A stretch of 45,064 nt of DNA from Anaerolineae bacterium (lineage in GTDB: Bacteria; Chloroflexota; Anaerolineae; CG2-30-64-16), in the NCBI GenBank assembly GCA_034434335.1, contig DAOTZS010000133.1, positions 1 through 45,064 on the forward strand, written 5' to 3'. Position numbers and translations under genes: made by a program. The notes beneath the pieces were generated by a model, which did not search any database, was not told the origin of the DNA, and worked only from the letters and a program-made list of their open reading frames with translations. Positions 4,571-43,390 of this stretch are shown one piece after another. Within the stretch, counting starts at the first letter, position 1, and each line of letters starts with the position of its first letter.

Positions 4571-5386
4571 TTATTCGCCATGGTAGACAAGAGTAATGCC
4601 CAGTTCCCGACAACGCTCTCGCACCTCGTCACCGATGCTCATGGCGATCATAATGCCCTCTACTTCGACGCCAGGATTGAGCGAGCGAACAAGGGTGACC
4701 TTATCAGCCAGGCGGTCGACATCCTCCCACTCGCAGTAGCTCTTGACCTCGAAAACCGATATCTTCCCGTCCTGAGCCAGGATGTCGATCTCAAAATGCC
4801 GCTGGCCTGGCAATCCCACTACACCCTTTTCGTCCACGATCCTCTGGCGTAACCGAATCTGTTCAGGCTTGATGTCGGAACGGCGCAGCGCTACTCGTAG
4901 CGCACCGGCCACTACCTCTTCTAGCTTGCGCCCCGAACGCCGTTGCAGCCCTCCAACGGTAAGCTCTACCCAATCGTGCTCGTCCGCTATCATCTGGCGA
5001 AGGGCAGCAAACTGCTGATCAATCCCCTCGAAGCGTCGGTCAATCCCCTCGAAGCGTCGGTCAATCCCCTCGAAGCGCCTGTCTATCTCTTCGAAGCGTC
5101 GGTCAATCTGCTCAAAGCGCTTGTCAATTTGCTCGAAGCGCCTGTCTATCTCTTCGAAGCGTCGGTCAATCTGCTCGAAGCGCTCCTGGGTCTCCTGGCG
5201 GAAATGGCGCACTTCGCCGCGCAACTCCCGCAGTTCGCTGAGAACGGCCGCGAACTCCTCCTTGCTGACAAACGCCTTCAGAAAGGCTCGAAAGGCGCGC
5301 GGCTCCAGTTCCGGATTGCGCTCTAGCATATCCGGCAATTGCACCTCGAGGATATACAGGACTTCTTCATCCTTCAGTTTCAGCAT
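4571..5386 (-). CDS. PD-(D/E)XK nuclease-fold protein (DUF1626/PDDEXK_10-like C-terminus) with an N-terminal DUF3782-like coiled coil built from tandem heptads
   Basis: C-terminus has a D...E-x-K arrangement (HFEIDILAQDGKISVFEVKSY). The middle is FEQIDRR FEEIDRR FEQIDKR FEQIDRR FEEIDRR FEGIDRR FEGIDRR FEGIDQQ. Start moved to ATG 5386 (AAGGAG RBS), which lies downstream of a strong promoter at 5421-5449. The upstream 41 codons of ORF 4571..5509 would precede that promoter. Confidence 0.75.
   Translation of the reverse strand: MLKLKDEEVLYILEVQLPDMLERNPELEPRAFRAFLKAFVSKEEFAAVLSELRELRGEVRHFRQETQERFEQIDRRFEEIDRRFEQIDKRFEQIDRRFEEIDRRFEGIDRRFEGIDRRFEGIDQQFAALRQMIADEHDWVELTVGGLQRRSGRKLEEVVAGALRVALRRSDIKPEQIRLRQRIVDEKGVVGLPGQRHFEIDILAQDGKISVFEVKSYCEWEDVDRLADKVTLVRSLNPGVEVEGIMIAMSIGDEVRERCRELGITLVYHGE
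5019..5186. repeat. Eight tandem 21-bp units (with 63-bp higher-order periodicity) inside the nuclease gene
   Basis: Units TCAATCCCCTCGAAGCGTCGG (x2 identical), TCAATCCCCTCGAAGCGCCTG, TCTATCTCTTCGAAGCGTCGG, TCAATCTGCTCAAAGCGCTTG, TCAATTTGCTCGAAGCGCCTG, TCTATCTCTTCGAAGCGTCGG, TCAATCTGCTCGAAGCGCTCC. They encode the FExIDRR heptads on the minus strand. Confidence 0.95.
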
Positions 5387-5420
5387 CTCCTTTGCCTCCA
5401 CCTCTATCGGCCTCGGTTTT

Positions 5421-5449
5421 AGTATAGCATAATCACCCGCTTCAGGCAA
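5421..5449 (-). promoter_or_regulatory. Promoter of the PD-(D/E)XK nuclease gene
   Basis: Minus strand TTGCCT-17 nt-TGC-TATACT (extended -10). Confidence 0.55.
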
Positions 5450-5469
5450 CAGTTGGGCAACCTCGTGAT

Positions 5470-5498
5470 TTGACGCCCGCTGCCGTTGCTGGCATAAT
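5470..5498 (+). promoter_or_regulatory. Promoter of the ZnuA-like gene
   Basis: TTGACG-17 nt-CATAAT with TGG just upstream of the -10. Confidence 0.55.
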
Positions 5499-5551
5499 CC
5501 ACCGCGCATAAGCGCGCCATATTCTCACCGTAGAAAGGAAGTTGAAGGAAG

Positions 5552-12430: not shown

Positions 12431-12622
12431 GTAACTATTCAGGCGGTGACTGGAAGTCACCCTTTTGGGCCTGCGGCCAGTGGTCGGCCTTCGCCGACCT
12501 CTCTGGTGATGCACAAATAAAGGGTGACGGCCTCCGCCGACACCCCTCGGGCCGAGCCCTTCGGGGCGAGGCCTGGCACAAAGTGCCCAGGGAGGGCGAT
12601 TTCAATCGGCCTGAATAGTTAC
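12431..12622 (-). mobile_element. MITE-like structured element, copy 1 (192 bp, 14-bp TIR GTAACTATTCAGGC)
   Basis: Its reverse complement aligns end to end with 36484..36701. Terminal inverted repeats GTAACTATTCAGGC / GCCTGAATAGTTAC. No ORF of its own. Fills the fur-feoA spacer. Confidence 0.85.
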
Positions 12623-13078
12623 CCTCCCCTGTGCCTTCCGGTCACCACGGCAACTCTCGCACCACCCATAGAAGGTGAGCGAGGCGCGCTCGATGACGAC
12701 CTGGTGCTGTTGACAGAATTGTAATCTGATCCTCTCCACCTCCGGCGATTCGAACTCGATCACCTGGCCGCAACCGACACAGACGAAATGGAAATGCTCA
12801 CCTCGCGGCGAGGGTTCAAAGCGCTCGCTGCGGTCGCCCGGGCCGGCTCTCAACTGTCGCGGCCGTACCAATCCCGCATCTGCCAACCAGCTCAGAGTGC
12901 GGTAGACTGTGGAAGGATTGATGGTCGGCACCCGTTGGCGTGCTGCATTGTAGACTTGTTCCGCGGTAGGATGCCCACCCAGCGCATCCAATGTCTCCAG
13001 GATCAGCCGGCGCTGGGCTGTCATCCGCCCGCCGTTGGCCCGTAACGCCGCGGTGGCCCGAGATAACAGGCTGCCCAT
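12602..13078 (-). CDS. fur: Fur-family transcriptional regulator; last 6 codons and the stop lie inside a repeat element
   Basis: RMTAQRRLILETL, PSTVYRTLSWLADAGLV, HFHFVCVGCG and WCESC motifs of Fur-family proteins. Metal specificity (Fur vs Zur or PerR) is not determinable from sequence. Confidence 0.9.
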   Translation of the reverse strand: MGSLLSRATAALRANGGRMTAQRRLILETLDALGGHPTAEQVYNAARQRVPTINPSTVYRTLSWLADAGLVRPRQLRAGPGDRSERFEPSPRGEHFHFVCVGCGQVIEFESPEVERIRLQFCQQHQVVIERASLTFYGWCESCRGDRKAQGRVTIQAD

Positions 13079-21308: not shown

Positions 21309-21510
21309 ACGCCCCAGAGCCGGACGCATGGGGAGCAGGGCCCAACGGCTAAAGTCTAGACGCGGGTGGGCGACGGCAGTGCCGTCGCCCACCCCGGCAG
21401 TGCCCTTGCCTGCCCACCCTCTTCTGGGGCTCGCAATGACCAGCAACACCCTATAGGAGGACTACCAACCCACTGCGAGGAAAAATACCCACCCTTGTGA
21501 GGGGAGCCAG

Positions 21511-21798
21511 GGGTGCGGGTCAATCCGCACAGTGTAGAAACCCCCTTAACTCGACACTAGTGCCGTGTTAAGCTAGATTCTGGCATTTTGCAGTCAGTGC
21601 GTTACCCCTCTCACCCCCTTTCCCCCGCTCTCCCCTCCCAGGGGAGAGCGGGGGAAATCCCAAGTGTGGGGGTTTCTGGGGCGGCGAAGCCGCCCCAGAA
21701 ACCCCCTTAATACCGATCTCCCCGCCCCCTGATAGGGGGCGGGGCCGGGGGTGGGGGTCAATCCGGAAAGTGTAGAATCCAGCTTTACAAAGCACTAG
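21511..21798. repeat. Hairpin-module element flanked by ~50-bp imperfect direct repeats
   Basis: Direct repeats GGGTGCGGGTCAATCCGCACAGTGTAGAAA...CACTAG (21511-21560) and GGGTGGGGGTCAATCCGGAAAGTGTAGAAT...CACTAG (21748-21798). Core hairpins CCCCCGCTCTCCCC-TCCCA-GGGGAGAGCGGGGG, GGGGGTTTCTGGGGCGGC-GAA-GCCGCCCCAGAAACCCCC and CCCCGCCCCC-TGATA-GGGGGCGGGG. Confidence 0.75.
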
Positions 21799-25212: not shown

Positions 25213-25267
25213 AGTCCTCCCCCCAATCAGGGCTTTCACTGTGATTAGACGCAACTCACAATATATG

Positions 25268-25496
25268 CTTTCTGTCTCCCTGGGCCTTCACTGCCCCTCA
25301 CCCCCTCTACCCCTCGGGACGTGGCCCTTGGCCTGCGGCCATGGGAGAAGGAAGAATAAACAAGAGAGGTTTTTGTGACGGCGGCCAAGGGCCACCGTCA
25401 CAAAAACCCTTTTCTCCTCCTCTCCTCTCCTGCCGCCAAAGGCGAGCGGGAGAGGAGAGGGGGCAGAGGGAGAGGTAAGGGCCTTGAGCGGCAGCT
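25268..25496 (-). repeat. Three-hairpin compound repeat, copy in the metY-metX intercistronic spacer
   Basis: Its reverse complement aligns with 39421..39641 across an outer stem plus three internal hairpins. Conserved loops CGCTCGCCTTTGGCGGCA and TGGCCGCAGGCCAAGG. Confidence 0.85.
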
Positions 25497-25519
25497 TTAG
25501 GGCCCCACCCCAACCCCCG

Positions 25520-27023: not shown

Positions 27024-27146
27024 CTCTCATCTTCCAGATCAAGTCTGCCGGAATTGGCACCCTAACGTAGCACAGGCCTCATTGCCATGTCTTACCGGGT
27101 TGCCGAGGCTTCATTGGGCCGGTCCCTCTGCCTCTCTGGATAAGAG
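27024..27146 (-). promoter_or_regulatory. SAM-I (S-box) riboswitch aptamer upstream of metY
   Basis: Minus-strand reading is CUCUUAUCCAGAGAGGCAGAGGGACCGGCCCAAUGAAGCCUCGGCAACC...GGUGCCAAUUCCGGCAGA...GGAAGAUGAGAG. This matches the SAM-I consensus, including P1 CUCUUAUC/GAUGAGAG. Confidence 0.88.
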
Positions 27147-27491: not shown

Positions 27492-28238
27492 ATGCGTCTG
27501 ATCTGTCTGGCCTGTGAGGTATTGGCGCGGCCGCTTTATCTGTGTGCGGCCCGCTCGCCCCATATCGTTGATATCGAGTTGTTGCGCCGCGGCCTGCACG
27601 ACAAGCCGGCTGACCTGCGAGCGCGGCTGCAAGCGCGGATAGACGCCCTCTCGGCCGGGCCCTATCCCTATGATGCCATTGTCATGGGCTATGGGTTGTG
27701 CGGGCAGGCCACCGCCGGCCTTACAGCACGAGCCATTCCTGTGGTGATCCCACGCGCCCACGATTGCATTACCCTGTTTCTGGGCAGCCGCCAGCGTTAT
27801 CGCGAGCAATTTGAGCGCTGTCCGGGCACCTACTGGTACGCGCAGGACTATATCGAACGGGATGACGGTCAGGCCGGCACCCTGGCGCTTGGCTCGGGCC
27901 CGAGCAGCGACCTGCAGAAGACTTACGAAGAATATGTGCAGAAGTACGGCCAGGACAACGCTGATTACCTGATGGAGGTCTTGGGGGCGTGGCAGAAGTA
28001 CTATCAGCGCGCGGTCTACATCGAGATGGGTGTGGCCGATGGTCGCGCTGTGGAGGAAAAGGCCCGCTCCGACGCTGCTCGCCGCGGGTGGGCCTTCGAA
28101 AAGATGGCAGGTGATCTGATACTGATCCGCCGGCTGCTGGAAGGGGATTGGGATACAGATTTCCTGGTATTGCAGCCCGGAGCCCGGCTGGAGATGAGCT
28201 ATGATGAGGGGATAATCACGTCTCAGATGGTATCATAG
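27492..28238 (+). CDS. DUF1638 domain protein
   Basis: LICLACEVLARPLY...YDAIVMGYGLCG...IPRAHDCITLFLGS pattern recalled for DUF1638. ATG 27492 has a GGAGGA RBS. ATG 27435 is an alternative start. Confidence 0.7.
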   Translation: MRLICLACEVLARPLYLCAARSPHIVDIELLRRGLHDKPADLRARLQARIDALSAGPYPYDAIVMGYGLCGQATAGLTARAIPVVIPRAHDCITLFLGSRQRYREQFERCPGTYWYAQDYIERDDGQAGTLALGSGPSSDLQKTYEEYVQKYGQDNADYLMEVLGAWQKYYQRAVYIEMGVADGRAVEEKARSDAARRGWAFEKMAGDLILIRRLLEGDWDTDFLVLQPGARLEMSYDEGIITSQMVS

Positions 28239-36483: not shown

Positions 36484-36701
36484 GTAATTATTCAGGCCGA
36501 TTGAAATCGCCCTCCCTGGGCACCTCGTGCCAGGCCTCGCCCCGAAGGGCTCGGCCCGAGGGGTGTCGGCGGAGGCCGACACCCCTCATGTGTGCATCAC
36601 CAGAGAGCAGCGAAGGCCGACCTCTGGCCGCAGGCCCCAAGAGGGTGACGCCTCGGGCGAGCCCTCGGCGTGGCCCTTCCAGTCACCGCCTGAATAGTTA
36701 C
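36484..36701 (+). mobile_element. MITE-like structured element, copy 2 (218 bp; 25-bp internal insertion relative to copy 1)
   Basis: GTAATTATTCAGGC...GCCTGAATAGTTAC. High identity to copy 1 by eye, with differences concentrated in hairpin loops. Located in the cstA leader. Confidence 0.85.
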
Positions 36702-38960: not shown

Positions 38961-39182
38961 GTCATTTGACAGGAGTTACGCACTTTGAGGCGTATCGCCC
39001 CATCCCTCTACCCTCTTGCCCGCAAGGCGGGGAAGAGGGATCGAGATTATAAGGGGTATTCCTGGGCGGCTTCGCCGCCCAGGAATACCCCTTTCAAAGG
39101 ATTCCCCCGCCCCCGATCGGGCGCGGGGGCCAGGAGGTGGGGGCACAGCGTAGTGCAACTGCATAACTCCTGTCATTTGACA
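38961..39182 (+). repeat. TIR-bounded hairpin element (TIR GACAGGAGTTAYGCA), copy A
   Basis: Left end GTCATTTGACAGGAGTTACGCA. Right end TGCATAACTCCTGTCATTTGACA. Central hairpin GGGGTATTCCTGGGCGGC-TTC-GCCGCCCAGGAATACCCC. Its reverse complement aligns with 43228..43390. Confidence 0.8.
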
Positions 39183-39205
39183 CTCCTCAGGGGATGTGCT
39201 ACACT
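39177..39205 (+). promoter_or_regulatory. Promoter of a small unit upstream of hisZ; the -35 is supplied by a repeat terminus
   Basis: TTGACA (the last bases of element 38961-39182)-17 nt-TGC-TACACT. Confidence 0.45.
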
Positions 39206-39318
39206 GGCGGTAACCTATGGGGAGGCGTTTTTGATGTACGGACAGACATCCCGGAGCCATCATCATTCGAGAGGGGGCAGGCGCACGGCATAGCCGACGT
39301 CTCATCAGCGCTTGCCCC

Positions 39319-39352
39319 AAGGACTGGTTGCATCTGCACCAGTCCTTTTTTG
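39319..39352 (+). terminator. Intrinsic terminator/attenuator in the hisZ upstream region
   Basis: AAGGACTGGT-TGCATCTGC-ACCAGTCCTT followed by TTTTTTG. Confidence 0.7.
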
Positions 39353-39420
39353 TTAACCTAAAGCGAGGATGGGGCAATTTGCCGGAAAAAAACCGGTTCA
39401 TACTTTTTGCGGTCGCTAGA

Positions 39421-39641
39421 ACTGCCGCCCAGGGCCCTCACCCCTCCCTCTGTCCCTCCCCTCCCCCGCTCGCCTTTGGCGGCAGGGGAGGGGAGGAGAG
39501 AAAAGGGTTTTTGCGGCGGCGGCCTTCGGCCGCCGCCGCAAAAACCCCCTCTTATTCCCCCCTCTCCCCTGGCCGCAGGCCAAGGGGAGAGGGGGGAATA
39601 AGAGGGGGTGAGGGGCAGTGACGGCCCGAGGGAGCAGAAAG
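39421..39641 (+). repeat. Three-hairpin compound repeat, copy in the hisZ leader
   Basis: Outer stem GCCCTCACCCCTC.../...GAGGGGGTGAGGGGC. Hairpins CCTCCCCTCCCC-loop-GGGGAGGGGAGG, GGGTTTTTGCGGCGGCGGCC-TTC-GGCCGCCGCCGCAAAAACCC and CTCTTATTCCCCCCTCTCCCC-TGGCCGCAGGCCAA-GGGGAGAGGGGGGAATAAGAG. Confidence 0.85.
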
Positions 39642-39682
39642 TGTTAACCAATTTTGAACCATCCCCTTGAAACTGGAGCAAT

Positions 39683-43111: not shown

Positions 43112-43142
43112 CAGCTATTTACAGCGAGGTCTGCAATGTCCC

Positions 43143-43217
43143 GTTCGTAGTAAGCCACGCAGCGCAGCGGAGTGGCGTCAGACGGCACTCCACTTCGTTG
43201 CGTGCCTGACTACGAAC
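43143..43217. repeat. Long imperfect hairpin 30 nt after the hisD stop
   Basis: GTTCGTAGT...CACGCAGCG..GGAGTG-GCGTCAGACG-GCACTCC..CGTTGCGTG...ACTACGAAC. Possible terminator or processing structure; no U-run. Confidence 0.55.
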
Positions 43218-43227
43218 ATATCATACG

Positions 43228-43390
43228 AGGAGTTACGCAGTTGCACTACGCTGTGCCCCCACCCCCAATTAGCCCCCACCCTCTGGGGGCGGGAGAATCC
43301 TTTGAAAAGGGTATTCTGGGCGGCTTCGCCGTCCAGAATACCCTATAATCTCGATCCCCTTTCCGCGTCTTGCGGGGAAGGGGGTAATAG
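43228..43390 (-). repeat. TIR-bounded hairpin element, copy B (one end degenerate, overlapping the HAD gene 3' end)
   Basis: AGGAGTTACGCAGTTGCACTACGCTGTGCCCCCACC...AGGGTATTCTGGGCGGCTTCGCCGTCCAGAATACCCT...CCCCTTTCCGCGTCTTGCGGGGAAGGGG is collinear with the reverse complement of copy A. Confidence 0.8.

Follow-up and report, generated by a model that had tools for sequence, protein, structure and literature searches.

The window analyzed here, a stretch of 45,064 nucleotides from an Anaerolineae bacterium that makes up the whole of contig DAOTZS010000133.1, contains two copies of an element rich in hairpins, and the stems of these hairpins differ between the copies by changes on both arms that preserve pairing. 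The question raised by this locus is whether such compensatory differences testify to selection on folded RNA or single-stranded DNA, as the initial annotation proposed, or have another origin. The element is a non-coding MITE of about 300 bp, a class to which it was assigned because of its small size, terminal inverted repeats (TIRs), target-site duplications, copy number, intergenic location and the existence of filled and empty sites. We estimate at about 75% the probability that it is a ~300-bp MITE of an uncultured Anaerolineae from Yellowstone hot-spring mats whose compensatory stem differences are mostly multi-nucleotide DNA events. The locus does not reveal a new kind of system.

Copy A (39421-39641, + strand) aligns with copy B (25268-25496), taken as its reverse complement, for about 239 nt at an identity of about 80% (BLASTN E = 1e-53). 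The RNA MFE was -182.7 kcal/mol for copy A (z = -13.0) and -136.8 kcal/mol for copy B (z = -8.6), and in each case as good a fold was found in 0 of 200 shuffles. The identity and the folds, which beat all 200 shuffles, bore out the initial observation that the window has two copies of a structured repeat. In hairpin 1 (39455-39496, +) a 12-nt homopyrimidine arm and a homopurine arm enclose a 16-nt tip (39468-39483) that is an imperfect mini-palindrome. The arms are CCTCCCCTCCCC/GGGGAGGGGAGG in copy A and CCTCTCCTCTCC/GGAGAGGAGAGG in copy B, so that two pairs are fully compensated, and the tip, CGCTCGCCTTTGGCGGCA, is the same in both copies. Hairpin 2 (39505-39547, +) consists of a GC-rich 20-bp stem with the loop TTC at 39525-39527; its arms, GCGGCGGCGGCC/GGCCGCCGCCGC in copy A and GTGACGGTGGCC/GGCCGCCGTCAC in copy B, show two compensated pairs and one T:G. 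The arm sequences of both hairpins, with four compensated pairs, one T:G and an identical 18-nt hairpin 1 tip, were as first described. The third annotated hairpin (39544-39609, +), with 27-bp arms around tGGCC-GCA-GGCCa, needed revision. Its arms are 100% complementary in copy A (inverted-repeat pair I18), and a perfect 27-bp stem is found in this copy only; in copy B and most others the 3' arm does not match or there is an extra module. An alignment of 13 copies showed that the 3' arm of the other copies is ...GGGGGGACAAAGGGG or carries an inserted module, that only some of the copies contain the optional module CCACGCCCCGA..., and that hairpins are gained or lost as whole units from copy to copy. 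The halves of the element also pair at long range in an outer stem (39423-39637, +) that runs on outward into subterminal inverted repeats. Triplex formation by the homopyrimidine and homopurine arms had been suggested as well; H-DNA requires mirror repeats, not inverted repeats.

The same 13 copies, aligned with their flanks, were used to establish the element limits and, below, the covariation counts. The family consensus starts with GGGATGGTTCAATTTGCCGGGAAAATTGGTTTACACTTTTTGCGG..., ends with ...GGCAGAAAGTGTTAACCGATTTTGAACCATCCC and has 12-nt TIRs, GGGATGGTTCAA / TTGAACCATCCC, followed by imperfect subterminal repeats. Full-length copy A extends from 39366 to 39665 on the + strand (the start is possibly 39365), and the nhmmer profile matched it at 39367-39665 (HMM positions 2-304, E = 1e-86). 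The ~220-nt element of the initial annotation is a real repeat, although its true limits, 39365/6-39665, take in the inverted-repeat ends that had been left out. The 5' TIR of copy A (39366-39377, +) is a degenerate AGGATGGGGCAA, and the 3' TIR (39654-39665, +) is the exact reverse complement of the consensus 5' TIR and its sole exact match in the window. Elsewhere, the consensus TIR is exact in L022, L029, L030 and L043; both ends match it exactly in L029 and L030, and many other loci have one exact end. Measured between the outer limits of the TIRs, copies span 268-325 bp. They differ by numerous indels whose lengths are not divisible by three, as well as by gains and losses of whole modules, and thus have no conserved coding capacity; the ORFs overlapping copy A are low-complexity by-products.

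Perfect 8-bp target-site duplications were found exactly at the element ends in L029 (ACCAATTT) and L021 (GACTATTC), the chance of one perfect 8-bp match at a fixed position being about 1.5e-5, and L022 has a duplication that matches at 7/8 positions (CTATAGAG / CTATCGAG). That of copy A is degraded to 5/8, with CCTAAAGC on the left (39357-39364) and CTTGAAAC on the right (39666-39673), where the sister species has a single TCTGAAGA. No target-site duplication was found in L030 or L043, and a recognizable one is present in just three of the six copies that have both ends. Copy B (25266-25500, - strand) comprises the internal part of the element (HMM positions 49-282), without TIRs or duplication, and is probably an immobile relic without ends inside the metY-metX operon.

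A metagenome scan with the conserved 3' motif identified 26 loci, mostly from the same mat communities. At least 20 distinct 3'-end loci were present among the fetched Yellowstone mat contigs, and two copies lie within the 45-kb window. The window sequences are also found in metagenome Ga0068707, which comes from an anoxygenic and chlorotrophic microbial mat in Yellowstone (PMC12324236), and the best named relatives of the window Rho, HisZ and MetY proteins belong to Anaerolineae/Chloroflexi MAGs. All short-read contigs carrying hisZ break inside the element or just outside it, the behavior expected of a repeat with scattered copies; the family is a cause of fragmentation in short-read assemblies of the Anaerolineae lineage studied here. 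No copy was detected in 83 kb from related species, and BLASTN with a full copy as query had no match in the plasmid collection. The 20-mer of the hairpin 1 tip produced only 14 chance single matches, in unrelated taxa, in a genome collection without the source genome.

Copy A sits between the his-leader terminator and the hisZ RBS/ATG (39683), upstream of hisZ-hisG-hisD. Comparison with relatives showed this site in its empty state. In the sister species L060, whose HisZ is 91% identical, the sequence ...CCAGTCCTTTTTTGTTAA-TCTGAAGA-TGGAGCAGTATG leads straight into hisZ, and at the same place the window reads ...TTTTTTGTTAA-CCTAAAGC-G[element]-CTTGAAAC-TGGAGCAATATG. The empty and filled sites indicate that about 300 bp were inserted together with a now-degraded 8-bp duplication. 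L061 (HisZ 77% identical) also has a hisZ leader without the element, in which the leader terminator is followed by the RBS and hisZ, and both flanks are conserved at the empty sites of L060 and L061. Copy B sits in the metY-metX intercistronic spacer, which measures 308 nt in the window versus 63-66 nt in the syntenic relatives L064 and L065. Upstream of metY-metX-metW there is a SAM-I riboswitch (27024-27146, - strand; 83.4 bits, above the Rfam gathering score), and copy B lies downstream of it. This riboswitch was the only Rfam match in the window at the gathering threshold. For the element no family reached the threshold, in agreement with the initial statement that it belongs to no described RNA family; at E <= 10 on both strands it gave sub-threshold matches, mostly to generic miRNA-precursor hairpins. 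Across the family, the 3' end of the element is often located 17-80 nt upstream of a co-directional start codon, which mainly reflects short spacers. A tie between orientation and gene direction was considered; five of the six copies in co-directional contexts are co-oriented, which is not significant, and no claim is made. A consensus scan for promoters inside the element or pointing outward from it found the his-leader promoter only.

Bacterial MITEs are non-autonomous IS derivatives (reviewed in PMC3184786, PMC10969869 and PMC11602168). Like them, the element described here is small (~300 bp) and non-coding, has TIRs and a target-site duplication of fixed length, occurs in many intergenic copies with insertion polymorphism, and folds into long hairpins. 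It differs in that no parent IS was found among the window ORFs or in the fetched loci, and in that its interior is built of three distinct homopyrimidine/homopurine palindromes, all very rich in GC, and not of one long imperfect stem. A literature search found no paper on MITEs in Chloroflexi. As a mechanism of spread, a DDE-type transposase encoded elsewhere in the genome would bind the ends and mobilize the element in trans. The 8-bp duplication favors an enzyme of this type. No transposase was detected among the window ORFs tested, which are a limited sample, and no IS with these TIRs in the fetched loci; mobilization in trans is accordingly putative. Copy A would have landed in the 5' leader of hisZGD, where it is probably co-transcribed, and both copies are presumably transcribed together with their downstream genes, hisZ and metX.

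Two other ways of producing a dispersed palindromic repeat were weighed against a DDE-mobilized MITE. The initial annotation pointed to hairpin-recognizing HUH transposases, which would make the element a REP/REPIN mobilized by a RAYT, or a palindrome derived from IS200/IS605, moving as single-stranded DNA. These families are also abundant GC-rich extragenic palindromes, multicopy as this one is, and the fold of the element as single-stranded DNA is strong (-115.5 kcal/mol with DNA parameters). Nevertheless, REP sequences are about 20-40 nt long or occur as doublets, lack both duplication and TIRs and are tied to Y1/HUH enzymes, whereas this ~300-bp unit far exceeds their size and carries 8-bp duplications and true 12-nt TIRs, the hallmarks of DDE-type cut-and-paste or copy-paste. 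HUH elements are not known to duplicate their target or to have TIRs, and palindromes of the IS200/IS605 type are marked by subterminal hairpins and by insertion beside a fixed tetra- or pentanucleotide. No Y1/HUH transposase was found among the window ORFs tested, and derivation from IS200/IS605 is further opposed by flanks that are duplicated and that differ between copies. The link to HUH, RAYT or IS200-type mobilization is contradicted by these ends, and we regard such an origin as extremely improbable. An alternative of a different nature is that small palindromic modules spread independently and became nested by chance, the window copies being similar mosaics. Mosaics do exist: L028 and L044a join the 3' end of this element and a hairpin 1-like tip to a hairpin of a second family (family 2, described below), L001 and L047 hold only a 75-nt piece, in a strain-variable spacer, and the CCACGCCCCGA... 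module is optional. On the other hand, the order of modules from TIR to TIR is common to at least seven copies, the duplications are at the outer ends and not at module borders, and the empty site shows about 300 bp arriving as one unit. Such a patchwork is improbable.

The origin of the compensatory differences was approached through strains in which the same locus could be compared. At the orthologous hisZ locus, L049 and the window show eight differences in 5,709 nt, of which three convert the hairpin 2 loop from TTC to GAA, its exact reverse complement. At the metY-metX locus a second allele, found in L051, L053 and L054 from three independent metagenomes, is about 0.7% different from the window overall, and 12 differences are packed in 36 nt of hairpin 1. 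In this L051-type allele the 16-nt hairpin 1 tip is inverted and the stem has changed from CCTCTCCTCTCC/GGAGAGGAGAGG to CCTTCCCTCTCC/GGAGAGGGAAGG, with two adjacent, fully compensated pairs. At a given locus, strains that are 0.1-0.7% apart carry hairpin tips that are exact reverse complements of each other. Both orientations are also found among copies of the family, for the hairpin 2 loops (TTC/GAA) as well as for the hairpin 1 tips, which are inverted in L022, L023, L030 and the L051-type allele of copy B, and an unrelated MITE-like family of the window (the third family, described below) has a loop flip of its own. The 18-nt loop described initially as identical is the same in copies A and B, but its occurrence in both orientations within the family means that it is not a strand-specific RNA motif. 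Hairpin 3 of copy A provides a related case. Its 3' arm departs from the family consensus ACAAAGG and reads AATAAGAG, now the exact complement of the 5' arm, which suggests, from the alignment, that the perfect hairpin arose by one multi-base change. The evidence for the flips comes from metagenome assemblies, with two to three independent assemblies behind each allele. An assembly artifact behind them is unlikely; the stems, of 20 nt or less, are shorter than the final k-mers of the assemblers, and the alleles recur in independent assemblies. In addition, L049 has CA in place of TG at two neighboring positions of the family-2 element (39154-39155), the new dinucleotide being the reverse complement of the old one; this change was considered as a second flip and left uncounted because no hairpin tip is predicted there. 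Both L050 and L051 are distinguished from the window by an indel of 6 nt (27660-27665).

The tip flips, the perfecting of hairpin 3 and the lack of strand specificity point to DNA-level events rather than to selection on a transcript, and from the variants compared the stems appear to be kept paired by such events, with the footprints of template switching or copy-to-copy conversion. The interior of the element is a set of nested near-perfect palindromes in which, according to this mechanism, most compensatory differences would be single multi-nucleotide DNA events. Replication template switching at quasipalindromes, with one arm copied from the other, would restore or perfect the pairing, switching across strands would invert the loop, and ectopic conversion between copies would add compensated stem changes. 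Base-by-base selection on a folded RNA would not be required. At imperfect inverted repeats, template switching has been shown to homogenize the arms and invert the spacer as one event, and it has been put forward as an origin of compensatory changes of several bases (PMC8794818, PMC8604942, PMC7202029); furthermore, micro-inversions of hairpin loops are familiar from plastid genomes (PMC6824564, PMC12371153). The likeness to template-switch mutation includes the replacement of a loop by its exact reverse complement between otherwise identical sequences, the perfecting of a stem by several bases in one step and the clustering of differences inside hairpins. The two differ in kind, however; template switching is a mutational mechanism and not an element family, and it is deduced here from natural variants of a bacterial MITE. 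The change in the hairpin 1 stem between the strain types (CT to TC on one arm, AG to GA on the other) goes beyond what a single template switch on a perfect stem can accomplish, and its likeliest source is conversion from another genomic copy, or else several separate events; no donor of the L051-type stem was found among the copies recovered. Taken at orthologous loci in strains less than 1% apart, the tip inversions and multi-base stem changes support the notion that template switching creates and maintains perfect hairpins.

Covariation was then quantified in the 13 aligned copies. Paired cells amounted to 86.4%, compared with 45-59% in slid controls and 84.2% in column shuffles. Two-sided changes were found in 18 pairs versus 9.7 +/- 2.0 in shuffles, and none of 500 shuffles reached the observed value. 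Compensation therefore persists when more copies are added. Hairpin 2 has two-sided changes in 8 of its 20 pairs and 95% of its cells pair; helices 4, 6 and 7 are paired in 89-95% of cells across copies, helix 4, the subterminal pairing, in 95%. As RNA, the + and - strands have similar folding energies, both strands folding equally well, and the mismatches within stems are weakly asymmetric (72 G:T versus 50 A:C), many of these cells being non-independent.

The excess of covariation over column shuffles is compatible with selection for pairing, which could act on mRNA stability; both window copies are within transcription units in a non-terminating orientation. One form of this idea is that the mobile element carries a structured RNA, a cis-regulatory or mRNA-stabilizing module or a small RNA, whose stems are held by selection on the transcript. 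Conserved stem pairing with more two-sided changes than in shuffles, the very stable folding and the position of both window copies inside transcription units, co-oriented with the genes, agree with it, and so does the precedent of the MITE-like bcr1 repeats, which are transcribed and show compensatory changes (PMC3184786). Hairpin 2 is terminator-like when read on the opposite strand, where TTTTCTC comes after it, a possible reason for the co-orientation of copies inside operons (the five of six mentioned above, not significant). The same sequences speak against an RNA in several ways. Loops and tips are found in either orientation, at times within one locus, entire hairpins are absent or replaced in other copies, both strands fold equally with similar numbers of G:T and A:C mismatches, the paired cells exceed those of composition-keeping column shuffles only slightly (86.4% versus 84.2%), and no Rfam family matches. 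We consider a structured RNA unlikely. The initial reading of the covarying pairs as a signature of selection on a folded nucleic acid is not supported, since the TIRs, 8-bp duplications, dispersed copies and empty site are the anatomy of a DNA transposon. A bolder and similarly doubtful proposal would be that the transposon has spread a selected thermostable RNA module, or that an unusually high, perhaps enzyme-driven, cruciform-processing activity lies behind the flips in this thermophile. Were the RNA-module reading true, modules located in 5' leaders and intercistronic spacers would determine mRNA stability or partial termination, and they would constitute a new mobile structured-RNA family absent from Rfam. 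The preferred interpretation, a MITE whose stems are renewed at the DNA level, carries a caution for covariation-based RNA discovery: covariation within palindromic repeats alone is no evidence of a functional RNA.

The closest specific analogue is bcr1 of the Bacillus cereus group, a MITE-like mobile intergenic repeat of about 155 bp with a cruciform-like fold kept via compensatory changes (PMC3184786). Both bcr1 and the present element keep their fold among copies through compensatory base-pair changes, and they have no sequence relationship. While bcr1 is flanked by 5-bp direct repeats and was shown to be transcribed, this element makes an 8-bp duplication and is presumably co-transcribed, and its loop flips suggest an origin at the DNA level. 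Other MITE-type palindromes, Correia/NEMIS in Neisseria and ERIC/IRU in enterobacteria, are co-transcribed with genes, and their RNA hairpins affect mRNA processing and stability. The Anaerolineae element resembles them as a palindromic MITE unit found in 5' leaders and between cistrons, and an effect of copies A and B on mRNA processing or stability is plausible as a by-product, by analogy. Its copies in the his and met operon leaders may alter regulation. Families of the Correia/NEMIS and ERIC type duplicate TA and have conserved ends of their own, to which Correia adds IHF sites; the element studied here differs by its 8-bp duplication of varied sequence and by ends that are, by inspection, unrelated.

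The DNA surrounding copy A has further features. A candidate histidine leader-peptide attenuator upstream of hisZGD occupies 39177-39352 of the window and has counterparts at 495-672 of L060, 2817-2988 of L061 and 2636-2812 of L062. It consists of a sigma-70-like promoter (TTGACA-17-TACACT), an RBS and a 19-codon ORF, MYGQTSRSHHHSRGGRRTA*, followed by a conserved stem, GGCAGGCGCACGG...GCGCTTGCCC, and a hairpin with a T6 terminator. The peptide motifs S-H-H-(H) and G-R-R-T-A/G* and both stems are retained by relatives whose HisZ is as little as 77% identical; the attenuator matched no Rfam family. In L062, a more distant Anaerolineae relative (its HisZ is the one named for the HGW-Chloroflexi-1 MAG), another, unlike palindromic repeat lies between the his-leader terminator and hisZ (2815-2990), with a second copy upstream (2340-2480). 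Insertions may favor the TTTTTTGTTAA region as a target.

Just upstream of the his leader there is a second, unrelated MITE-like element (family 2) at 38970-39172, and a related piece is found at 43228-43386. Its TIRs are CAGGAGTTACGCA / TGCATAACTCCTG, and it is flanked by a perfect 8-bp duplication, TCATTTGA, at 38962-38969 and 39173-39180. The right-hand duplicate provides the -35 TTGACA of the his-leader promoter, and the site is empty in the sister species L060, which has a single TATTTGA. Family 2 shares internal hairpin modules with L028 and L044a, the mosaics mentioned above. Another MITE-like family, the third, has a length of about 210-240 bp and TIRs of 14 nt, GTAACTATTCAGGC; it is represented at 12431-12640 and, inverted, at 36484-36701, as well as at 1120-1340 of L026. 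The window copies are 94% identical, and the L026 copy has one internal hairpin loop flipped (CTCC versus GGAG).

Repeats are also present on the other side of the his genes. The spacer downstream of hisD (43124-43387) is replaced in same-species strains by a longer, different repeat mosaic (3588-3927 in L001, and in L047), which includes the 75-nt piece of the studied element, and the flanking genes are more than 98.6% identical. This replacement among strains suggests that repeat turnover is ongoing within the population. Elsewhere in the window, eight tandem 21-nt units with a seven-residue periodicity (4987-5204) are located inside an ORF at 4571-5509 on the - strand, for which no Pfam or NCBIfam match was found. 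Upstream of an MFS transporter gene, direct repeats at 21503-21560 and 21741-21798 (78% identical) flank a hairpin with 35-nt arms (21651-21723), which resembles the internal module of family 2 and shows a weak match to the element profile (E = 1e-8).
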